IMG/VR virus record: IMGVR_UViG_3300021400_000046
Coordinates: 85,632-149,631 of that record
Reading direction: 5' to 3' (one strand)
Length of the DNA stretch: 64,000 nucleotides
Source of the DNA: a virus
Taxonomy: Duplodnaviria > Caudoviricetes
Made by a program: the position numbers and the translations under genes. Each line of letters begins with the position of its first letter. The first letter of the stretch is position 1. This document shows, piece after piece, positions 7,439-43,173 of this stretch. The notes under the pieces were generated by a model, which worked only from the letters and a program-made list of their open reading frames with translations, was not told the origin of the DNA and searched no databases.

Positions 7439-8614
7439 TTAACCGTTGTGCTTCAAAAGATATTCTCTTGAAACATTTTTGAAACTAAAGTCATTTGTCG
7501 GATCACGAAGTACAACACCTTCGCGCATTACATTAGGATTGACAACAGACTTCGCCGTTGCATATTCCTTAAATTCCTCCATATCATTCGGCACATGATA
7601 ATCAACATCGAGAATTGGAACAAATTTCATACCAAAACCAACAATAATCTTCTCTGCATCTACCGATGATAAACGCCCTTTATCAGAACGAATGAAGTTA
7701 AACACATATAGATCATCTTCTTTTAGTTTTAGAGGATTACCTTGAACGCTACCTACGGACTCCCCCTGAATACACACATATTTCAGCTCTGGATTATCAA
7801 GTAAATATTGCTTCAACTTTGCCTCAATGTTGTATTTAAGTGCCATTTCCCAATAAATGTTCTTGTCGTGATAACACTTTTGGTCAATGGATTTCTGCCG
7901 GACGTTCCTGGAAAGAACATAGAACTCAAACTTCTTTCTCCCTTTGCGTTCCATGATATATGTAGATGAAGTTCCATCCAGCTTTTCAGTAACAATCAGA
8001 GGTCTTTCATAACCAAGTACCCACGGAATATTTTCGCAGCGTTCCTCGTCTGTCTTATGTACAAATGGAAAATGAGTAGGAAATGCAAGAGGCTTATCTT
8101 TCTTCTTACCAAAGAAAAAGAACATGATCTTTCTGCCGATTTTTGTTCTCATAATCTTGCGCACAATCGGCTTTCTGAAAATCTTTTGGTGACGAGCTGC
8201 CATTGCCTTATACTTATCATTTGGGTTTGCTGTATTTGACTTTCGCACATTATCTTCTGCAACAGCATAAGTCACTTTCAGCAGATCAGTAACATCGCTA
8301 CCAACTTCTAACCCGTCCAATTCAGGGAACATGGAAACTGGTAGGAGCAGCCCTTGTGAGTAGACCTTGCACATCTTCTGTGTTTTGATCTTGTAATGTT
8401 TTGCTTGAAGGAATGCAAATCTTTCATCAGTCTCAGGCACTTTGCTATCAACCTCGAAATACACAGCCTTTTCGCCAACCTTCAACTCACCAAGTCGAAT
8501 AACACACCACCAACCGTTAGTTCGTGCGTGTTCAACTCTGTCATAGTTTGGGATAGGCCGGACTTCATCAACGGTTACGATATAAGCCAACGCTCTTTTA
8601 TCGTTTATAATCAT
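7439..8614 (-). CDS. RNA ligase (DRB0094/Rnl2-like family)
   Basis: N-terminal RALAYI..VYFEVDS..YSQGL domain; KTDEER; TEKLDGTS motif I; QGES; REGVVLR..SFK. Confidence 0.9.
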   Translation of the reverse strand: MIINDKRALAYIVTVDEVRPIPNYDRVEHARTNGWWCVIRLGELKVGEKAVYFEVDSKVPETDERFAFLQAKHYKIKTQKMCKVYSQGLLLPVSMFPELDGLEVGSDVTDLLKVTYAVAEDNVRKSNTANPNDKYKAMAARHQKIFRKPIVRKIMRTKIGRKIMFFFFGKKKDKPLAFPTHFPFVHKTDEERCENIPWVLGYERPLIVTEKLDGTSSTYIMERKGRKKFEFYVLSRNVRQKSIDQKCYHDKNIYWEMALKYNIEAKLKQYLLDNPELKYVCIQGESVGSVQGNPLKLKEDDLYVFNFIRSDKGRLSSVDAEKIIVGFGMKFVPILDVDYHVPNDMEEFKEYATAKSVVNPNVMREGVVLRDPTNDFSFKNVSREYLLKHNG

Positions 8615-8827: not shown

Positions 8828-9400
8828 TTATCCCTCCTGTACAGGCATTTCATTTCCCCAAACATCGAAACCTGGATGCTCATAACGGGCATATAATTCA
8901 AGTTTTTTCAAGTTTGGATAAAGGCGATTGATAATTTCGTATGAAAGCTCTGGCTTTTGGCTATGCCGCCTAACTTGTTCTGTAAAAACAGTATGTATTT
9001 TACCGCGTTCATCTGGTGCAACTGGAATAAGTTTACCTTTGTACATATAAAGCAGATACTCATGCCCAAATCTAACCGTGAATGCTGCTGGAATACCAGT
9101 GACTTTATTCCAGACCATCCTTGCATGAAGTTTATAACCCAATTCTTCGGCTATTTGTTGTGCTTCAAATAGGTATTTATCAATAGTCCAAAGAAACAAA
9201 ATTGAGTTCTCCCCCGGAGCAAGGCTTGTAGCTTGCCGCAAATGATCTTTGATTTCTTCAAGTGAACACACCGGGTAATCAAGCTCTGTGCCACTGCTTT
9301 GTGGTCTAACACTTTTCTTCCCGCCTTTTGCTTGCCTCCAAGGTGGATCGGCAAGAATTAGATCATATTGCCTATCTGTTTTCCAAATATCAACTCGCAT
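8828..9400 (-). CDS. MT-A70 family adenine methyltransferase
   Basis: ILADPPW, LFLW, VWNK, RHSQKP, LELYAR..WGNE. Confidence 0.92.
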   Translation of the reverse strand: MRVDIWKTDRQYDLILADPPWRQAKGGKKSVRPQSSGTELDYPVCSLEEIKDHLRQATSLAPGENSILFLWTIDKYLFEAQQIAEELGYKLHARMVWNKVTGIPAAFTVRFGHEYLLYMYKGKLIPVAPDERGKIHTVFTEQVRRHSQKPELSYEIINRLYPNLKKLELYARYEHPGFDVWGNEMPVQEG

Positions 9401-23065: not shown

Positions 23066-23495
23066 GATTTTTATGACTGAACAAGAATACAAACACATTC
23101 GCAATCTTGCTTGGAGTATTCTCATTGAAATTGGCGCTAACTCTTTACCAGTTCAGCTTGATACAATAACAAACATCTATCAGATAAGCGTTAATGTAGA
23201 TAACTACTATAACAAAGCTATTCAGATTTCTTCCTGCTTGTTGTCTATATTTGGCTTAAATAAAGATTTGTCTGAAATGCTTGCTATCAGGTTGCTATCT
23301 CCGATGGTTGTGTTAAAAGAAATTGGTGTTCGTTCTGGTAAAGATATTGCAAAGTTGACAGGTCTGCCGATTTTTGTTGCAAATAAGAGATACGAGCGCC
23401 TTCAGATGCTTGTAAAGCGTAACGCATTTTGCACTTCACGACTTGAACAGATTGTGTTAAAGCAATTTGAACCGTGGATTATTGCTAACCGTTAA
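23064..23495 (+). CDS. ImmA-like protein lacking the HExxH catalytic core
   Basis: ImmA-like N-terminus (SLPVQL..I) and C-terminus (LAIRLLSP..DIAKLTGL..ANKR), no HExxH. Confidence 0.55.
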   Translation: MIFMTEQEYKHIRNLAWSILIEIGANSLPVQLDTITNIYQISVNVDNYYNKAIQISSCLLSIFGLNKDLSEMLAIRLLSPMVVLKEIGVRSGKDIAKLTGLPIFVANKRYERLQMLVKRNAFCTSRLEQIVLKQFEPWIIANR

Positions 23496-24193
23496 GCCTT
23501 TGTTGTGCAATATCAAAATATGTATTATCTATCTCTATTCCAATGAAATTGCGATTTAAGTTTTTGCAGGCCATACCTGTACTTCCAATACCCATAAATG
23601 GGTCTAATATAATTTGTCCTTCACGAGATGAATTATCAATCAATATCTCCATTAACTCAATTGGCTTTTCTGTATCATGAAGATTTTTACCAGAAGCATC
23701 TTTGCTCTTTTTGTTTGGAATAGAAAGAATATCACTTGTGCCACAATGGTTAATTTGAACACCTTTCCCTTTTCGGAAGAACAGAATATACTCATATTGC
23801 GACATATAAAACCTTCCCATAAGTTTATTGCCTTTATTCCAAATAAGACTTTTGATAAAATGAAAACCAACGCCAGTAAATGTGTTAAGCATATTTATCA
23901 AATTCACATGATTTGACATGACATAACAATGACTTCCATCCTTTAACAAACGGAAAAACTCAGGCGCATATTCTGAGCAATCAATACTGTTGTGTTCAAA
24001 TATCTTTCCTTGCATTGTTGCTTTTGTTGCCATCATACCACCAGTGTTACCAGCGCAGCCTTTCTTTGTAATTGGGTAAGGAGGATCAGTAACAATCAGA
24101 TCAATACTTTTATCAGGAAGTTTCTTTAATTCAGTAATACAATCTCCACAAATAAGATTTTGCCAGGGGGGTGATGGTAGTATCTATATTCAA
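23485..24193 (-). CDS. beta-class DNA adenine methyltransferase with a frameshift at a C6 tract near the start
   Basis: ICGDC..IVTDPPY lies upstream of the listed ORF in the same frame; HDTEKP, ILDPFMGIGSTG; the TTG start (24193, GGAG RBS) is out of frame across the C6 tract at 24166-24171. Confidence 0.85.
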
Positions 24194-24207
24194 TATTTCT
24201 CCTATGG

Positions 24208-27274: not shown

Positions 27275-27400
27275 TTATGGCTCAATTAGTTTGTAGCCAT
27301 TCCGAAAACATTTCTGTCCAATAGTTGTTGTAATTGTTCCTATTGTTTGCTGATCCAGCCTTACATTGCTATTGTAATCATCATATACAATTACATTTCT
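27275..27400 (-). CDS. extra C5-MTase TRD-like module reachable by +1 G at CGGGGG (27401-27406)
   Basis: RNVIVYDDYNSNVRLDQQTIGTITTTIGQKCFRNGYKLIEP* in the -1 frame after the G5 tract. Confidence 0.7.
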   Translation of the reverse strand, partial: RNVIVYDDYNSNVRLDQQTIGTITTTIGQKCFRNGYKLIEP

Positions 27401-27810
27401 CCCCCGGATTTAGCGCTGTTTTCATGTTCAGTGTTGTTAATCCATTCAAACAAACGATTTAATGCAATTTCAAAAGCACCAATTCCAGAGAAATAACTGC
27501 CGACTTTCAAATCATTAAATAAGTACGGCATTGCAACATAAAGGTTTTTTAATATGTAAAATAGAACATCGGTCACTATTGAATTACCGGCCTGTTTATA
27601 TAATTGCGAATCACTAACAACCTCATTTAGTGCAGCTTCAATACTCTGTTTTAGATCGTCATTTGGAAACATTGTGATTATTCGCTTTGCGGTTTCTCTA
27701 CTTCCAGTTTTCGCCGCATAAAAATCTTCATCAGTAAAACCCATCAATCGCCAGCATTCTTTTGGTGTTAATTTTCTAATTCTGTAACCATGCTCAGAAT
27801 TTTCAATCAC
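27391..27810 (-). CDS. C5-cytosine methyltransferase, C-terminal piece (motifs IX, X, then I; permuted)
   Basis: RIRKLTPKECWRLMGF (IX), QLYKQAGNSI (X), SYFSGIGAFE (I). Confidence 0.9.
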   Translation of the reverse strand: MIENSEHGYRIRKLTPKECWRLMGFTDEDFYAAKTGSRETAKRIITMFPNDDLKQSIEAALNEVVSDSQLYKQAGNSIVTDVLFYILKNLYVAMPYLFNDLKVGSYFSGIGAFEIALNRLFEWINNTEHENSAKSGGEM

Positions 27811-29028
27811 TCGTTTATCACCCCCGCATTGATAGTTCGGATTGTTCCTACTACATCGTCATTAAACAATCTCAAACCTTCATCGGTTCTTTGTTCGCAC
27901 ACAATATATTCTTTATCCATAACTACAACCATAGGTTGAAGATTACCCCCCTGACAAGTGTGCAAGGCAGGAGCAATACCGTCAACACTATAAACCCTTC
28001 CTTGATTTGGATTATCTCTTGTTTTTGTCGGGCAAACATTCCCAATCCATATAATCTCACTCATTATTTTTATCCATAGGCTCAATAACAAATATCATTT
28101 GGTTAGATGCTGTTAGTGTTGGACATATTTCTCCCCCGACTGAACACGGCCACGCCGAGTCTTAGACGTTGGATAGCTGAAATCTGCGATACCTGGAACA
28201 GCACACTCAATATAACCTGTTTTTGTAGCCTGTCTTATTCTTATTTTCATAATTTTCAACGATCATCACATGGTTTTTTATACCTAAACCAGCACATAGA
28301 GTTGGTGATAACCCCCGGATTCGTAGACAATATTTGATTGATGTTTACCCGTCCCTTTTTCTATGTGGCCGATTACTTTGATCTTCTTTTCTTTCATACG
28401 TTTTCACAACAATTTTTGGTGGGTCTTTGTAACATGAAGATGGGATAGTTGACATTAACCCATTTACTGAATAAATCCAACCTTGTTGTCCCCCGAACCT
28501 CGATGGATCAGCCGGTCAATCTCATTCTTTTTGTTCATCATTTGTAACCACCATAACTAAAATCTTTGGAGGGTCTTTATAGTGTGTTGATTTGATAGTA
28601 CACATTGAACACCCCCGGAAGTATCATACACTTCTTGATTTTGATGTATCTTACCGGAGTCTGGTATCAATCTCCCAAGAACTTTTGTTTCCAATATTAT
28701 TTTACCCTCTCAATTACTAATTGCCTTCTATGTGTTCGCAAGAAGTATTCAAATGTAATTCCCTTGTGATAGTTCGCATCAATACAATATGAATACTTGT
28801 CACACAATCCATACTTGAAATCTTTGTGTTCTTCGGAATCCCCCGGACGGAGAGATTATTTCTCTTTACGTCTGGCATTTAATAACTCCATTCATCGGTT
28901 GATTACCGAACACTTTGTAATCTCTTGCGAGAAGCGTGTTTGCTATATCTATTTCTCTATCAAACTTAGTGCATTGCTCTTAGAATAGCCCTGTTTTTAT
29001 ACCTGAACCATATCCCATTGGTGTCTGT
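27807..29028 (-). other. array of C5-MTase target-recognition (TRD)-like mini-modules, six split at CGGGGG
   Basis: Starts at 28878, 28694, 28541, 28397, 28250, 28064; one added G gives SYCIDANYHKG, CTIKSTHYKDPPK, STIPSSCYKDPPK, VYESGGLSPTLCAG, RRGRVQSGGEICPTL, GTIRTINAGGDKRVIE. Confidence 0.8.
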
Positions 29029-29769
29029 CTAAGCTCGATCTCCCACCTGCCTAATGGCGTTAGAGTTCTTCTTATCTAACTTGCCGGAGTCAATCAGTTC
29101 ATCAATAAGCTGTTTTGCCTTATCGGTATTTATGTAGTATTTTTCATCAACTTCTGTTTCCAAAACATCTTTTAAGCATTTGTCACTCTCAAAGCCTTCG
29201 GGGAATGAGAACAGGCCATTATCAAACTCTTTAAGAATAATAATCAAGAATACACGTTCTCTATTTTGCGGGACACCAAAATCCTTTGAATTTAGCACTT
29301 TGTAGTATGTGTTATAACCGTACTCATGTAGCTCGTCAATGAACATCTGGAATGTATCTTTGAATTTCTTACCTACAATGTTTTTGACGTTTTCATAGAT
29401 CCCCCACTTAGGTTTATTTGCTCGAATAACTCTAAGCCATTCAACAAGCAACGAGCTTCTTGACTTATCAAGATTCGTGCTTCCACATTTCGGACATCTA
29501 TTACGGACAGAATAATGAACTGTCAAAGGATTATATGTATGACCACAATCATTACACTTCCATCTGCTGCCCACTTGGTTTCCTGCCACACTGAAATCTT
29601 GGCATGGACTTCCACCACAGATCATATTAAATGGCTGCAAAGCGTGTTCATCAACAAGTGTAATGTCTCCAAGGTTTTTTGATGGATCAGCACCATGCAC
29701 AGCACAATAACTTTTAACTGCGAACTTATCAAACTCACAGAAGTTTACCAATTCATACGACTTATTCAA
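29029..29769 (-). CDS. C5-cytosine methyltransferase, N-terminal piece (motifs II-VIII, no motif I) with zinc-finger insert
   Basis: FCEFD, GDIT, GGSPCQDFS, YENV, VPQNRERVF; CNDC..CPKC insert; TTG start after GAGAGG. Confidence 0.92.
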   Translation of the reverse strand: MNKSYELVNFCEFDKFAVKSYCAVHGADPSKNLGDITLVDEHALQPFNMICGGSPCQDFSVAGNQVGSRWKCNDCGHTYNPLTVHYSVRNRCPKCGSTNLDKSRSSLLVEWLRVIRANKPKWGIYENVKNIVGKKFKDTFQMFIDELHEYGYNTYYKVLNSKDFGVPQNRERVFLIIILKEFDNGLFSFPEGFESDKCLKDVLETEVDEKYYINTDKAKQLIDELIDSGKLDKKNSNAIRQVGDRA

Positions 29770-30084
29770 TGAATACCTCTCATGCTTTTCTTGTTTTCAT
29801 TACTGTTCCTAAATCTAAAAGTACCGCCAGATGAATTGTTTATTTGTTTCATCTGACGGTGATAGTATAACGCAAACTCAATAGGTTGTCAAGGTAGTTT
29901 TCACAACAATTTATAGCGCAGAATTAATCAGGAACAGGAAGTGACTTTGTAACTACGCCACTATAAGCCTGTGCGCCGTCTTGCTGAACAATCACTACCA
30001 TATGCGGGTGTCCGTATTTGCAGAGCCATTCATGCAGCGGCATGATAGCATCCTGGAACTCTTTTCCCGCTTGTTCATCCATCT

Positions 30085-37508: not shown

Positions 37509-37617
37509 TGTGCGGACAAGGATTTGCACCTTGTATGGCAACCCCCACTACTTTATTTCAGTTGCCTCACACCAACGTCAAAATTCTCGATGTGTCTACC
37601 TATTCCACCACCGCACA
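37509..37617 (-). ncRNA. Leu-type tRNA-like RNA with non-canonical anticodon arm
   Basis: TGTGCGG/CCGCACA stem, GTGGAATAGGTAGACAC D-arm, CAAGG-TGCAAAT-CCTTG T-arm, GGCAAC/GTTGCC extra stem. Confidence 0.6.
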
Positions 37618-37804: not shown

Positions 37805-37880
37805 TGGTCTGAGCGACTGGACTTGAACCAGCGGCCTCTGCATCCCAAATGCAGCGTTCTACCAACTGAACTACGCCCAG
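37805..37880 (-). tRNA. tRNA-Pro(UGG)
   Basis: Cloverleaf, CTGCA-tt-TGG-ga-TGCAG, CCA encoded. Confidence 0.95.
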
Positions 37881-38389
37881 ATATAATTGTTTAATACTTT
37901 ATGTAATTCATAATCACTCGCAATATGTATTCTTTTCTTTTGATTTGTTTTTGGGTATGTATATCGAAGTCTAAAAACGAATCCTGTTGCATCAGAAATT
38001 GGGACAAGATAACCTTTTCCATTAAACCATGTATAAAAGAAATCAACATCACTACTTTTATACTTATATCTTATCATCCGTTTTGTATTTACCGTTATGC
38101 TACTTGTAGCAATTTCAAATGCTTCGTTTTCATATCTCGTATCTTTGCACCATGTACTATGTTTGCATTGTATTTTAATAATCTTATTACCCATATCAAC
38201 TGCAATATCGTATTTACATGAATCATCAACTGGCGTTAAACACATATACCCTAATTCTGTAAAATCTTGTATACAATGCAGTTCTGTTAGTAATCCTTTT
38301 TGTTGTGTTGTACCTTCTAATTCCTTCACTTTTCCACCTATATAACAAATAGAATGGCAAACTGCTCGGCACTCTCTAATCAAATACAT
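37871..38389 (-). mobile_element. PD-(D/E)XK homing endonuclease (group I intron-associated type), free-standing in the tRNA array
   Basis: KGLLTE..GY..TP.DDSCKYDIAVD..KIQCK..YKSSDVDFF; true start probably GTG near 38330; stop lies inside tRNA-Pro. Confidence 0.8.
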
Positions 38390-38447
38390 GAGAAGTTTTT
38401 GTCAGCTTCTTTCGTCTTTCTTCCATACCGCCAAGAAAGAACCAAAC

Positions 38448-38523
38448 TGGTTGCGGGAGTAGGATTTGAACCTACGACCTTCGGCTTATGAGGCCGACAA
38501 GCTAACCGCTGCTCCATCCCGCA
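38448..38523 (-). tRNA. tRNA-Met(CAU), initiator-like
   Basis: TGCGGGATGGAGCAG..TCGGC-ct-CAT-aa-GCCGA..CCA. Confidence 0.93.
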
Positions 38524-38527
38524 ATAT

Positions 38528-38797
38528 TTACTCTCCAACAACAATAAACAACCGTTTCTTGCCCCACTTGATATTCAAACAGTCTGGCTTGTCTAACGTT
38601 ATAACCAAGTCTTTTCTGTTTCTGCGAACTTCACCAGTTGATGCAACAAGTCCAGCTTCTTTCATTACTGCCGGTAGAAAACGGGTTTCTGTGAACAGTG
38701 TAACCGGCTTTTCATTCTGTTCCCAATCTTCATTGTCAAAAGCAAGCACTTGTCGTATGTCAAATAACGGTTTGCCAATCACTACATTTTGAAACAT
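38528..38797 (-). CDS. small protein resembling the TyrRS C-terminal S4-like domain
   Basis: MKEAGLVASTGEVRR..IKWGKKRLFIV. Confidence 0.55.
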   Translation of the reverse strand: MFQNVVIGKPLFDIRQVLAFDNEDWEQNEKPVTLFTETRFLPAVMKEAGLVASTGEVRRNRKDLVITLDKPDCLNIKWGKKRLFIVVGE

Positions 38798-39339
38798 ATC
38801 TCTCTCCTTAAAACAATACAGGCCAGCCGATCAGATTTGCACTACTCAACGCCGTAACACTATGTATGAGAAGTTGGTTAGCGTTGCCTCTCCGCATCCG
38901 TATATTTTTTTTATTAACCCTCATGCGCCTCTAACCGGCTGTACCCATATCGCCGCATTCTGCAAATATCTCTTTTACCAACCTATAAACCACCGACAGA
39001 CCATTTGCACAATCAAATGTTAAGTTTCGTTGCAAAATGCTTTTTGTTTAATTTTCGATGATATACATTCATTTAGTAGCTCCTAATTGTGTCACCCGAT
39101 CTAACGTGTCGGTAGAGCCATAACGTCACATAAGCACCTAATACGTTTTAGTACGGCCAGCAGATATATCATTTCACCGCTCGGCAGGGCTGAGTACCCT
39201 TGCTTTATGTAATACCCAATAGCGGCCATCAGCCATAGGAGCAGCCGCCACGAGTGCTTGCTAACGAGGACTTTACTGTGAGTGTTTTGTTGTAGTGGTT
39301 TTGCCCCGCCTATATTCGTAACATTGGGTATCAATTTTA

Positions 39340-39427
39340 TGGAGGAAGGTGTGGGATTTGAACCCACGGACGTTTTACCGCCACTGGTTTTCAAGACCAG
39401 CACCATAAACCACTCGGTCAACCTTCC
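39340..39427 (-). tRNA. tRNA-Ser(UGA)
   Basis: CTGGT-ct-TGA-aa-ACCAG, long variable arm, CCA. Confidence 0.95.
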
Positions 39428-39430
39428 GTA

Positions 39431-39524
39431 TGGTACTCCCATAGGGACTCGAACCCTAATTTCGCACTAATCTGGTGCTGGGCGGATCATAAGGCCGCTG
39501 GCTTACCAATTAACCGATGGGAGC
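39431..39524 (-). tRNA. tRNA with UAU (Ile) anticodon and long variable arm
   Basis: GCTCCCA/TGGGAGT acceptor, GCGGC-ct-TAT-ga-TCCGC, GCAC/GTGC variable stem, TTCGAGT T-loop, CCA. Confidence 0.8.
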
Positions 39525-39529
39525 ATATC

Positions 39530-39614
39530 TGGTGTCGATGATCGGACTTGAACCGATATACCAAATGGCAGCAGATTTTGAGTCTACCGTGTCTGCCAAT
39601 TCCACCACATCGAC
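39530..39614 (-). tRNA. tRNA-Leu(CAA)
   Basis: GTAGA-ct-CAA-aa-TCTGC, CCA. Confidence 0.93.
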
Positions 39615-39687
39615 ATTTAGATGGCGGTTGTAACGTAATAACTGAGCCGCCGCAGTTATAAAAGGAGAATTTTATGAACAAGTACCG

Positions 39688-39764
39688 TGGTGACGCTACC
39701 GGGGATCGAACCCGGAAGTTCCACCTTGAAAGGGTGGTGACTTTACCAATTCGTCTATAGCGCC
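39688..39764 (-). tRNA. tRNA-Glu(UUC)
   Basis: CCACC-ct-TTC-aa-GGTGG, CCA. Confidence 0.95.
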
Positions 39765-39831
39765 ATATATAACTTGTGTTCCACAGGAAATAATGATTAT
39801 CGTGGCAGCTCTGTTATTTCCTCACAAGTTA

Positions 39832-39917
39832 TGGTGCCGCTGGCGGGACTCGAACCCGCACGGCTCGAAGCCGAGGGATTTTAAGTCCCTTGTGTCTACC
39901 GATTCCACCACAGCGGC
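39832..39917 (-). tRNA. tRNA-Leu(UAA)
   Basis: AGGGA-ct-TAA-aa-TCCCT, CCA. Confidence 0.95.
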
Positions 39918-39919
39918 AT

Positions 39920-40228
39920 TTATTCATTCAGCTTCTTACGAATTTCATATAGGAAATCAAGAATAGAGAAACTTTCGTCACCTTTTTCAACTCTATTAAT
40001 TGCAATTCCTACTTCTTTTTCAATTTCATAAAGAATATTATCAGCGTGTCCTTGCGCTTCAATAGTAATATCTTCAATTAATTGATCGAAAAAATCTGCG
40101 CTATCCTTCCCAAGCCTATCTTCGATTACTCGCCGGAAGTCATATTGTGGATTGATGATATACTCACGCGATCCATCTTCAAAATAAATAGTTGTCATTG
40201 TGCTGCGCTCCATGTTTTGTATATTCAC
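39920..40228 (-). CDS. hypothetical protein
   Basis: ORF directly upstream of tRNA-Leu. Confidence 0.55.
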   Translation of the reverse strand: MNIQNMERSTMTTIYFEDGSREYIINPQYDFRRVIEDRLGKDSADFFDQLIEDITIEAQGHADNILYEIEKEVGIAINRVEKGDESFSILDFLYEIRKKLNE

Positions 40229-40369
40229 AAAGACCTTTTACAAAATAACTTTGTGATCTGCTATGCAGTTTCAACCGAACGAAAAGAAAGGAGGGATAAT
40301 GAAATGGAGGTTTATCACATAAGCAACAACAGAACGGATGATAGTGTTCGGTTAGGTTTTGGTATGTAG

Positions 40370-40558
40370 TTAAGTTTTCTTTGAGGTTCCGAAAAAACCT
40401 TCAATATTGCGTGGGCTGGATGTACAGAAATCTTTAATATCTCGCTTCAATTCAGCTCCGCACTTATCACAGAAATGCCCGTTTGCCGTGTATTCAGAGG
40501 CCGGAATTGATATGGTCTTTTGTTTACCGCATTCAGGGCAGATAAATTGATAATTCAT
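40370..40558 (-). CDS. FmdB-like zinc-ribbon protein
   Basis: YQFICPECG..CDKCG. Confidence 0.7.
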   Translation of the reverse strand: MNYQFICPECGKQKTISIPASEYTANGHFCDKCGAELKRDIKDFCTSSPRNIEGFFGTSKKT

Positions 40559-40860
40559 TTGTTCCTCTTGCGTTTGTACTTTTCATTACTGTTTCTTAGG
40601 CTGTTTGATTACTTCATCTTACACGCAGATTGTACCATATAAACCACAGTTTGTCAAGGTAGTTTTCACAACATATTCTAATCTTTTAAGAAATCGTCTA
40701 TATCTTGTTCTGTAGTAGTTCCAATATGTTTCTCCCCCCGACTCATAGGCATCAAGCCGTTCAAGAGCTTTGTGCAACTCATAGAAAAAACTTTTGCTTG
40801 TTGGATTACCTTCAGAACTCGCAATCCTGGTTTCAATAATGCCAATTAGAGTTTTAGTTG

Positions 40861-42201
40861 TCATTGATAGTTCTCCTTAATGATACTGTCAATTTGATCT
40901 GCAATATTTACGAAAGATTGTTCTGTAAATCCTTTTGTAGTCATGGCTGCGGTTCCAATACGAATACCACTCGCCTCAGTTGGCTTACGTTTTTCTCCTG
41001 GTACACAATTCTTGTTTAGTGTAATACCATATTCATCAAGCAAATCCTGCACCATTGCACCAGTAACATTCGGTAGCGTTTTAGAGAGATCAATTAAGAA
41101 TAAATGATTATCAGTGCCGCCAGTTACAACATGATAACCAAGCCTGATAAATTCATTACACATTGCTTTGCAATTCTTTACGACTTGATGGATATATTTC
41201 TTGTATTCTTCTGTACACGCTTCTTCTGCTGCAACAGCTTTACCAGCAATAATGTTTTGCAATGCGCCGCCTTGAATACCAGGGAATACGGCACTATCAA
41301 TCTTCTTAGCCAACTCTGGCTTACAGAAAATCATACCTCCTCGTGGGCCTCGTAAAGTCTTATGAGTAGTGGTCGTGATAATATCTGCAATGCCAAATGG
41401 GGAAGGGTGATCTTCGGCAGCTATTAGGCCAGCAATGTGCGCCATATCAACCATAAAATATGGGTTATAATCTTCTGGTTCTACATATACATTGTAAACT
41501 CCTGCATTTTTCGCTTCATAGAAGTCTCGCGTAATTCTCCCACGAGCATTATCAATGATCTGTCTGATACGCTGAAAATCAATAACTCTGGAATAAGCAG
41601 ATGCACCGGCAAGAACCAGTTTCGGCTTATAACGCAAAATCTTTTCTTCAATATCCGCGTAATCAATAAACCCGTTCTGATCTACTCCATAGAAAACCAT
41701 CTTATAAGTTTTGCCTGAAAAGTTCACAGGAGAACCGTGCGTTAAATGTCCACCGTTTTCAAGGCTCATGGCAAGAATTGTGTCACCAGGTTTCAAAACT
41801 GCCATATAAGCCGCCATGTTCGCGTTAGAGCCACTGTGCGGCTGCACATTCACATGATAATCAGTGTTGAATACTTCGCGCCAATTGTTGCAACAGTATT
41901 CTTCAAGCTCGTCGATAATCTGGCATCCACCATAATATCGGCCTTTGTTGCCGGTAGTTCTAACTGCTGGGTAGCCTTCAGAATACTTGTTCATCATGCA
42001 AGAACCAACTGCTTGCAGTACGTTATTACTTACAAAATTCTCACTTGCAATCAGTTCAATAACACTTTCTTGTCTATGGTATTCAGCGTTTACCAACTGC
42101 AATGCGTAGCTGATCGGCTTATGTCTATTTCTTGCACTCATAAGTTTATTATAAATATCCTCTGCTTCTTCACTTGCAAATTTCTGGTTGCTTCTTTTCA
42201 T
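40861..42201 (-). CDS. glyA: serine hydroxymethyltransferase
   Basis: IELIASEN, NKYSEGYP, RYYGG, NVQPHSGS, GGHLTHG, TTTTHKTLRGPRGG, GGTDNH, SGIRIGT. Confidence 0.97.
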   Translation of the reverse strand: MKRSNQKFASEEAEDIYNKLMSARNRHKPISYALQLVNAEYHRQESVIELIASENFVSNNVLQAVGSCMMNKYSEGYPAVRTTGNKGRYYGGCQIIDELEEYCCNNWREVFNTDYHVNVQPHSGSNANMAAYMAVLKPGDTILAMSLENGGHLTHGSPVNFSGKTYKMVFYGVDQNGFIDYADIEEKILRYKPKLVLAGASAYSRVIDFQRIRQIIDNARGRITRDFYEAKNAGVYNVYVEPEDYNPYFMVDMAHIAGLIAAEDHPSPFGIADIITTTTHKTLRGPRGGMIFCKPELAKKIDSAVFPGIQGGALQNIIAGKAVAAEEACTEEYKKYIHQVVKNCKAMCNEFIRLGYHVVTGGTDNHLFLIDLSKTLPNVTGAMVQDLLDEYGITLNKNCVPGEKRKPTEASGIRIGTAAMTTKGFTEQSFVNIADQIDSIIKENYQ

Positions 42202-42307
42202 CTTGATCCTCGCTATCTGTTGTTACACAATCTGTACACGATGTTGCAATATCACAACAATCACAGTTATAATCACATTCAACTTCATTATTTACATTGT
42301 AAACCAT
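42170..42307 (-). CDS. 45-aa Cys-rich acidic microprotein overlapping the glyA start
   Basis: GGAGG RBS; MVYNVNNEVECDYNCDCCDIATSCTDC..ICK*. Confidence 0.5.
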   Translation of the reverse strand: MVYNVNNEVECDYNCDCCDIATSCTDCVTTDSEDQDEKKQPEICK

Positions 42308-42330
42308 TGCAACCTCCAAAGTGTTTTATT

Positions 42331-42406
42331 TGGTGCGCCCGACAAGAATCGAACTTGCGACCCACAGATTAAAAGTCTGCTGCTCTACCGACTGAGCTAC
42401 GGGCGC
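42331..42406 (-). tRNA. tRNA-Lys(UUU)
   Basis: GCAGA-ct-TTT-aa-TCTGT, CCA. Confidence 0.95.
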
Positions 42407-42470
42407 ATATAAGCCAGAGTCCAGATAAAAGAATTTTACAATATATAAGTGGTCTTTACGAACTTGGCTT

Positions 42471-42546
42471 TGGCAGAAGTGGGAAGATTTGAACTCGCCA
42501 TCTCACAGTTTTGGAGACTGTTGTTTTACCGTTAAACTACACTCCT
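42471..42546 (-). tRNA. tRNA-Trp(CCA)
   Basis: ACAGT-ct-CCA-aa-ACTGT, CCA. Confidence 0.9.
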
Positions 42547-42710
42547 ATGTGCGGCTTTTCCCTACGATTGGAGGATAAACCGTAACCCGTTTGCAAACTG
42601 GAAGGATTTATGCTTTCGTCAAAGTCCTTGCCTTACTGTGCCGTTGTTAGACCAAGTTTTAATTTCCAAAAAGGACGGAGTTCTGATAACAACACGATAA
42701 TCTCCGCTGC

Positions 42711-42785
42711 TGGCAGCGCAGGTTGGGATCGAACCAACGATGTAGGAGTCAAAGTCCTATGCCTTTACCGCTTGGCGACTGCGCT
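42711..42785 (-). tRNA. tRNA-Gln(UUG)
   Basis: TAGGA-ct-TTG-ac-TCCTA, CCA. Confidence 0.93.
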
Positions 42786-43010
42786 ATATTTGTGCCGCAG
42801 ATTTCATCCGTCAATAGAAACTCATAGATGCGTCCACCTATTATGCAGCACTTAATATCCAAGATCGGCTCTACAACACTAACGGGTTACTTGGTTCCCG
42901 TGGAATTACCAACTTCCAAAAGGTTCCACATCTTATTATGCGACATATTGGGATCACAGCCGCATCACACATATAAAGTCAAAGTAGAGAAGTCACAATA
43001 TATGCGCGAT

Positions 43011-43085
43011 TGGAGCGGGTGACGAGGCTCGAACTCGCACGGCCTGATCGGAGGTCAGGGATGCTACCAATTACATCACACCCGC
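43011..43085 (-). tRNA. tRNA-Gly(UCC) with C33
   Basis: CCTGA-cc-TCC-ga-TCAGG, U73, CCA. Confidence 0.88.
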
Positions 43086-43088
43086 GAA

Positions 43089-43173
43089 TGGTGCTGGCGA
43101 CAAGACTTGAACTTGCACGGTTTTCACCACGGGAACCTAAATCCAGCGTGTCTGCCAATTCCACCACGCCAGC
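43089..43173 (-). tRNA. tRNA-Leu(UAG)
   Basis: CTGGA-tt-TAG-gt-TCCCG, long variable arm, CCA. Confidence 0.92.

Follow-up and report, generated by a model that had tools for sequence, protein, structure and literature searches.

The split and circularly permuted C5-cytosine DNA methyltransferase (C5-MTase) encoded at positions 27275 to 29769 on the minus strand of the DNA analysed here is probably a contingency locus at the DNA level, in which poly-G runs switch individual target recognition domain (TRD) modules of the enzyme in and out of frame, and in which nearly all modules are off in the present sequence. We put the probability of this reading at roughly 0.7. The window, i.e., the whole stretch of 64,000 nucleotides that was analysed, forms the final 64 kb of an IMG/VR phage genome (IMGVR_UViG_3300021400_000046) that is complete at 149,631 bp and carries direct terminal repeats. 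According to the proposed mechanism, the region would form one operon consisting of a core open reading frame (ORF), several short TRD cistrons that overlap one another and a terminal ORF with the catalytic motifs IX, X, and I. The G runs would change their length by slipped-strand mispairing during DNA replication, and each module would independently be in frame with six or nine G (G6 or G9) and out of frame with G5, G7, or G8. The phage population would then vary in the sequences that are methylated, which may balance the escape from host restriction enzymes against the avoidance of methylation-dependent restriction, and modules that are not fused to a catalytic piece would act as separate subunits. 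We infer that such switching occurs within the population of this phage, that it concerns methylation specificities, and that it has an anti-restriction role.

The plus-strand hexamer CCCCCG is present 12 times in the window compared with 5.0 ± 2.4 expected copies, and none of 100 shuffles reaches 12. Seven copies are located within 1.45 kb (27401, 27821, 28133, 28312, 28490, 28612, and 28840) and five elsewhere, which agrees with the count of a first-pass annotation made from the sequence alone. That annotation had furthermore described a split C5-MTase with an array of TRD mini-genes, which is confirmed by Pfam and profile matches, by translation and by intact relatives. It had also stated that the frame breaks at all seven sites and that one added G leads to a coherent TRD-like peptide, as is indeed obtained by three-frame translation; the module with a G6 run at 27946-27951 is in frame as claimed, and the claimed module starts exist (28878, 28694, 28541, 28397, 28259/28250, and 28064). 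However, CGGGGG is not the recurrent element, since it is the G run that recurs, with A, T, or C as preceding base in the relatives. C precedes the run in all seven G5 tracts of the window, in 20 of 39 G5 tracts of the relatives and in about one quarter of their longer tracts, and CGGGGG as a sequence motif was therefore rejected. Likewise, a single long ORF resulting from +1 G at every site was rejected, because stops remain between the modules. The modules are small separate cistrons of about 60 codons with their own ATG or TTG, which overlap the next one by 10-30 nucleotides in the +1 frame, and translation of the window gave no path through the array via the third frame (G4 or G7 state). 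Thus, the window does not have the tandem TRDs on a single polypeptide that characterize the SPbeta/phi3T type, as its TRDs reside on separate overlapping ORFs with stops in between.

All elements of the array are encoded on the minus strand. The core ORF of 246 amino acids (29029..29769) ends at a degraded first tract, T0 (GGTGGG, 29042..29047), which is recognizable as a ninth tract from the alignment with six relatives and at whose position, +717 nucleotides, the relatives carry G5 to G11. The module behind it, TRD0 (28866..29041), is dead, with an in-frame TAA at 28980-28982 where the six aligned relatives have TCA. Five TRD mini-cistrons with one G5 tract each follow, all of them off: cistron 1 (28697..28878) with start codon ATG 28878 and T1 at 28840-28844, which needs +1 G; cistron 2 (28522..28694) with TTG 28694 and T2 at 28612-28616; cistron 3 (28345..28541) with ATG 28541 and T3 at 28490-28494; cistron 4 (28207..28397) with ATG 28397 and T4 at 28312-28316; and cistron 5 (28057..28259) with TTG 28259 or ATG 28250 and T5 at 28133-28137. 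TRD6 and TRD7 share an ORF of 85 amino acids (27807..28064, ATG 28064), in which T6 is the G6 run and in frame, and T7 is G5 (27821-27825) and off. The off-frame stop TGA (27807-27809) of this ORF adjoins the start codon GTG 27810 of the C-terminal piece (C-piece; 27391..27810, 139 amino acids). Near the end of the C-piece lies T8 (G5, 27401-27405), and the terminal module 8 (27275..27400) is read only after T8 with one additional G. All eight tracts T1 to T8 are located at frame junctions, and in the state of the window TRD6 alone is in frame, seven modules lack one G each and TRD0, as mentioned, is dead. Behind the first tract, in locus L014 (830-900) and at homologous sites including positions 28990-29047 of the window, two overlapping frames both look coding, one ending as a short tail after about 17 codons and the other running through a complete module. 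As the third frame soon reaches a stop, the first tract is possibly a three-way switch.

Further evidence comes from the relatives. Searching viral contigs with the core protein gave 79 loci, which are referred to by L numbers, and the tracts were counted in 31 distinct related loci whose module region contains at least two G runs of five or more, on the coding strand from +600 to +2500 nucleotides. The 31 loci contain 140 runs of at least G5, corresponding to 2.41 per kb compared with 0.23 per kb in the flanks, and nearly all of them have the G on the coding strand. The runs of the relatives are 5 to 11 nucleotides long with in-frame and out-of-frame states mixed: 39 of 46 G5 runs need +1, 23 of 31 G6 runs are in frame, and both states occur among G7 to G10. 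The loci L026 and L027 from sister samples have no substitution in 2.9 kb, but G6 and G11, respectively, at the first tract, and L005 and L008, which are 96% identical, have unequal lengths at two G tracts. The same variability is found when the single tracts of the window are followed through their homologues. T2 corresponds to G6 in frame in L004, L011, L014, and L018 and to G5 in the off state in L041, T3 to G5 in L011, G8 in L041, and G6 in frame in L025, and T4 to G7 in L012 and G9 in L024 and L026. The T5 homologue in L015 is G5, and intact single-chain relatives without a G run at this position read through in frame. T6 has homologues with G5 (L013), G6 (L012), G7 (L014), and G9 (L041), those of T7 range from G4 to G8, and those of T8 are G5 or G6, with module 8 following motif I on the same chain in L014 and L015 (both G6). 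Tracts homologous to those of the window are contracted to G4 in L005, L008, and L009. In a separate lineage represented by L023 and L042, whose core ORF is 71% identical, all five tracts are G5 and off. Moreover, content and order of the modules vary between the phages.

Therefore, length differs among close relatives with conserved flanks, as is typical for a contingency locus, whereas a fixed and conserved slippery sequence, as would be required for programmed frameshifting, is not found: length and frame relation vary, and there are intact relatives without tract. Conserved tract positions with variable length in homologous loci had been set beforehand as a test of the idea, and its outcome is positive. 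Since the homologous loci vary in tract length, slippage at the DNA level is favoured over plain decay, ribosomal frameshifting and assembly error. The first-pass annotation had reached nucleotide-level slippage by another route, namely from the occurrence of the tract in all codon phases. DNA slippage is favoured by the length variation in the relatives, but the phase argument alone is not decisive, because a tRNA-Gly slipping in the P-site on the G run leads to the same product in any phase, and the transcriptional insertion of G that was also considered there is unsupported. Decoding of G5 at the RNA level without any change of the DNA, either by an RNA polymerase that adds a G or by a tRNA-Gly that slips back by one base, is in our view very improbable. 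Such a -1 slip would give the peptide of the G insertion in all three codon phases, and the phage has its own tRNA-Gly(UCC) at 43011-43085. However, the homologous sites range from G4 to G11 in all three frame relations, which is a signature of DNA slippage and not of a fixed recoding signal, and the intact loci L029 and L038 without a run of at least G5 are read straight through. Furthermore, five G are short for transcriptional slippage. The tRNA-Gly(UCC) as a frameshift suppressor was set aside, since variation at the DNA level explains the data. Two further observations concern the range of arrangements among the relatives. At L024 7079-7336, one G9 tract picks between two different modules that begin with the same start codon, each of which is garbled in the frame of the other. 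At L060 2187-3548, in a phage type of about 38 kb, a C5 enzyme of canonical motif order has two tracts of G7 to G9. The modules that they gate are joined to the core in one case and to the piece with motifs IX and X in the other, so that the switch is present in a minimal form with two modules.

Homopolymers are a classic source of errors, and the genome is a metagenome assembly for which the platform is unknown. Hence, the true sequence could have G6 at every site. Outside the array, the window has 11 other G5 or G6 runs, and nine of these lie within intact ORFs, including CGGGGGG at 40734-40740, with in-frame G5 runs at 9211, 9970, 21289, and 25026; of the remaining two, the run at 37542 is outside any listed ORF of at least 80 amino acids, and the other breaks the frame of a second methyltransferase gene at its start. 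In addition, about 470 A or T runs of at least six across the genome go along with a dense and unbroken ORF map. Because of these two observations, a general under-call of homopolymers can be regarded as unlikely. As the run at 27946-27951 was called as G6, and as independent assemblies from many samples show a similar tract polymorphism, an artefact at all seven sites has only a very small chance of being the explanation.

The protein-level alignment with the relatives gives, for both halves of every module in the window, proportions of non-synonymous differences (pN) of 0.07-0.27 and of synonymous differences (pS) of 0.4-1.2, the latter often being saturated. For TRD2 the ratio pN/pS is 0.05-0.2, and for module 8 pN is 0.17-0.21 and pS 0.75-1.17. 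The half of TRD1 behind the tract is homologous to segments in the variable region of the intact loci L028, L029, and L038, with pN of 0.20-0.26 and pS of 0.85-1.09. The low pN relative to pS in both module halves indicates that the modules are under purifying selection and that the frames behind the tracts are kept coding. In the uninterrupted relatives, the enzyme is a single ORF of 535 or 625 amino acids with permuted motif order and several tandem modules; L029 and L038 have no run of at least G5 in the array and carry their tandem TRDs on one polypeptide, as in the SPbeta/phi3T type. Since such uninterrupted relatives exist and read through the T5 position without a G run, the tracts and the cistron boundaries are derived features that were added to a multispecific enzyme of the SPbeta/phi3T kind. 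Downstream of the intact enzyme of L029, a separate ORF of 123 amino acids (7695-8066), for which Pfam gives no match, contains two module-like repeats and may encode a recognition protein that stands alone.

The catalytic part of the locus is assigned by its motifs IV, VI, VIII, IX, X, and I to the C5 cytosine DNA methyltransferases (PF00145). The core ORF contains motifs II to VIII and matches PF00145 (E=1.2e-43) at profile positions 82-212, along with zinc-ribbon profiles; it starts at motif II and is without motif I. The columns of PCQ (motif IV), ENV (motif VI), and QxRxR (motif VIII) are invariant across 52 relatives of the core. Between motifs IV and VI, the core has a zinc-ribbon insert of the CxxC...CxxC type (29460-29570), which is kept in the relatives. 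The C-piece contains motifs IX and X followed by motif I (FSGIGAFE) and matches PF00145 (E=2.3e-10) at profile positions 270-300, and its columns of IX, X (GNS), and I (FxGxG) are invariant across 33 relatives. Profile comparison leads to M.MpeI and M.HhaI, and the C-piece profile matches M.MpeI twice, at residues 332-388 and 11-30. Moreover, it matches the contiguous X-to-I junction of DRM2, a permuted enzyme of plants. Because motif I comes last among the conserved blocks of the C-piece and the core starts at motif II, and because of the double match with M.MpeI and the X-to-I match with DRM2, the enzyme is, on the basis of its motif order, a circularly permuted C5-MTase of the order II-VIII, TRDs, IX, X, I, with the new ends between motifs I and II. 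It does not belong to the M.BssHII-like Type H, in which the N-terminus lies in the variable region and IX and X precede I-VIII. The topology with motifs II to X followed by I was also observed in L029 (5977-7584) and L038 (5989-7866).

With regard to expression, the best promoter-like site of the region is located upstream of the methyltransferase array at 29864..29892 on the minus strand (TTGACA, 17 nucleotides, TATACT; 11 of 12 consensus matches), and no terminator-like sites were found on the minus strand inside the array. The G run of T7 lies 8-12 nucleotides upstream of GTG 27810, where the ribosome-binding site of this start codon would be expected. T7 would thus be a master switch that turns the enzyme off if re-initiation at GTG 27810 fails. 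A fold model of three chains (core, C-piece, and TRD6-7) reaches a score of 0.83 compared with 0.60 for the best of three controls. In the benchmark, the mark applied to such models is reached by 58 of 80 solved complexes and by 2 of 110 mismatched pairs. At least 61% of the contacts are shared between the runs, with a predicted local distance difference test (pLDDT) value of at least 58 for the partner. In the model, TRD6 contacts residues 167-171 of motif VIII in the core as well as motifs IX and X of the C-piece, so that the free module is placed at the TRD site of solved single-chain enzymes; that the model passes may owe much to this likeness. As a tentative extension, which we regard as possible at best, the TRD mini-cistrons could encode free and exchangeable specificity subunits, each gated by its poly-G run, that dock in trans between the shared core and the piece with motifs IX, X, and I. 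If this is true, the C5-MTase would resemble a Type I system with interchangeable S subunits.

Several observations weigh against a switching locus in this phage. The seven tracts of the window are only G5, which implies a far slower switching than with the G8 to G11 of the relatives. High-rate switching usually goes along with G/C runs of at least seven, and such lengths are present in the relatives (G7 to G11), whereas the window has only G5 and one G6. As the G5 tracts are short, switching in this particular phage may be slow. A Shine-Dalgarno-like motif, loosely defined, is present at only 20 of 54 module starts, which gives weak support to a separate translation of the modules. If translation of the piece with motifs IX, X, and I does not begin at GTG 27810, the enzyme as a whole would be off in the state of the window. 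Finally, all seven modules are off together, like all five in L023/L042, which also fits a copy that is locked off or decaying; TRD0 is truly dead, having a degraded tract and a nonsense codon, and the neighbouring methyltransferase gene of the N6_N4 family is out of frame, too. The copy could accordingly belong to a methyltransferase that is being lost, with G6 as ancestral state and contraction to G5 as the fastest inactivating mutation. It would agree with this that all seven G5 tracts need +1, that G5 is the shortest length of the family, and that the homologous tracts mentioned above have gone down to G4 in three loci. On the other hand, there is no stop or other lesion in the on frame of the seven modules beyond the one missing G, both halves are under strong purifying selection, and a single frameshift would suffice for inactivation, yet seven modules carry exactly one each and always at the tract. 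Moreover, TRD6 is in frame and the pattern with G5 throughout recurs in the separate lineage L023/L042. Loss is therefore considered unlikely, and DNA-level switching of the modules remains the preferred explanation.

In the relatives, long G runs are confined almost entirely to DNA-modification genes, among which the C5 enzyme is not the only one. In a complete relative of 151 kb, seven of eight runs of at least G7 are located within 3.3 kb, four of them in the C5-MTase and one in a Dam gene. The other two belong to PAPS-reductase-like genes, and in one of these the tract splits the gene. Another relative, a fragment of 53 kb, has 14 long runs, eight in the C5 enzyme and four in two genes for D12-class adenine methyltransferases and a gene for an N6_N4 methyltransferase. 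The tracts of these further modification genes, which are G7 to G9, are found at L024 3235-5855 and L083 1067-3239. Three long runs are outliers, two in the 53-kb fragment and one in the 151-kb genome, and are located directly before a start codon, within another ORF and in a space between ORFs. The whole DNA-modification island of the relatives appears to be switchable. The second methyltransferase gene of the window, which belongs to the N6_N4 family (E=4e-33; 23485-24202, minus strand), loses its frame at a C6 run of the coding strand (24166-24171). A TTG start at 24193 that is linked to a ribosome-binding site lies just before this run, and C5 would rejoin the start to the catalytic frame. 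In L006 (8448-9932), an ORF similar to adenine or N4 methyltransferases is seemingly split right after DPPY by a long insert that looks like an intein or homing endonuclease.

The nearest matches of the phage's ligase are human-gut phage contigs and Clostridium phage c-st with 37-45% identity. The permuted C-piece is also present in genomes or genome bins of Oscillospiraceae, Lachnospiraceae (Lacrimispora, Blautia, Faecalimonas, and Coprococcus), and Coprobacillaceae, a few of which contain G7 to G9 tracts. In cultured phage genomes, a DNA search gave nothing beyond short matches to conserved motifs, and protein matches have an identity of at most 44%. The window furthermore contains a cluster of 12 tRNA genes (37805-43173, minus strand), including the tRNA-Gly(UCC) and a long-armed tRNA with the anticodon UAU.

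Random switching of methylation is well known from phasevarions and phase-variable Type I, Type III, and IIG systems of Haemophilus, Neisseria, Helicobacter, and Campylobacter, in which a repeat in the coding region shifts the frame (PMC11868660, PMC7383803). The phage locus shares with them a homopolymer or short repeat in the coding region that would toggle methylation. However, the bacterial systems are encoded by host genes, mostly methylate N6-adenine and use one repeat to switch the whole enzyme, whereas here the enzyme is a C5-MTase of a phage with up to nine tracts, one per module, and what would be switched is the set of specificities and not just whether the enzyme is present. In phages, hypermutable poly-G tracts have been described for receptor-binding protein genes of Campylobacter phages (Sorensen et al., as cited in PMC11868660), and poly-G switches in receptor-binding proteins are the single phage demonstration cited in a phase-variation review of 2025 (PMC11868660). 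Here, too, tracts encoded by the phage would diversify the phenotype of its population. The two cases differ in that the Campylobacter phage tracts affect adsorption proteins in a host that is itself known for poly-G variation, whereas those described here are located in genes for DNA modification, and relatives occur in genome bins of Clostridia. Poly-G-gated or otherwise switchable TRD arrays in phage methyltransferases were not found to be described in the open-access literature.

The C5-MTases of the Bacillus phages SPbeta, phi3T, rho11s, and H2 have tandem TRDs between motifs VIII and IX, each recognizing one target, and L029 and L038 share this layout. The phi3T enzyme is a distant sequence relative with 34% identity. 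However, the Bacillus phage enzymes are single polypeptides of canonical order without repeats or switches, whereas here the order is permuted and the TRDs are separate cistrons with G tracts. In M.AquI and M.EcoHK31I, the core and the part with motifs IX and X are on separate chains that assemble. Here, the two parts are encoded by separate ORFs, and their assembly is suggested by the fold model, with the caveat on likeness given above. The natural two-polypeptide enzymes consist of two fixed pieces in canonical order, in contrast to a core, a piece with IX, X, and I, and up to seven TRD mini-ORFs here, with the state of the tract deciding about fusion. Separate assembling chains for the core and the IX-X part are also known from engineered split permutants of M.MpeI and M.SssI. 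The active M.MpeI pair Mpe[62-279] + Mpe[280-61], i.e., motifs II-VIII plus TRD-IX-X-I (PMC5944983), has nearly the same layout of the pieces. A circularly permuted motif order is shared with the Type H enzymes M.BssHII, M.Alw26I, M2.Eco31I, M.Esp3I, and M2.BsaI, but those start in the variable region (IX, X, I-VIII) and not with the order II-X, I. A REBASE survey from 2018 found only Type H among the natural permuted C5 enzymes (PMC5944983). Hence, the II-X, I permutation is absent from the natural permutants listed there, and only the engineered enzyme came close.

Phase-variable methyltransferases have so far been known as devices of bacteria. The locus described here would present the phage side with a finer grain, that is, with one switch per recognition module. 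It is also a natural C5-MTase with a permutation topology that was hitherto only engineered, and its natural set of portable recognition modules could be of use for understanding and designing sequence specificity. If the switching is confirmed, the methylation pattern of phages of gut Clostridia would become diverse within a population. This would have consequences for their host range, for the balance of classical with methylation-dependent restriction and for the reading of methylation motifs in viromes. And if the modules are indeed free subunits, then together with the switches in the Dam, D12, N6_N4, and PAPS-reductase-like genes of the relatives they would provide these phages with a programmable, heritable, and reversible epigenetic coat.

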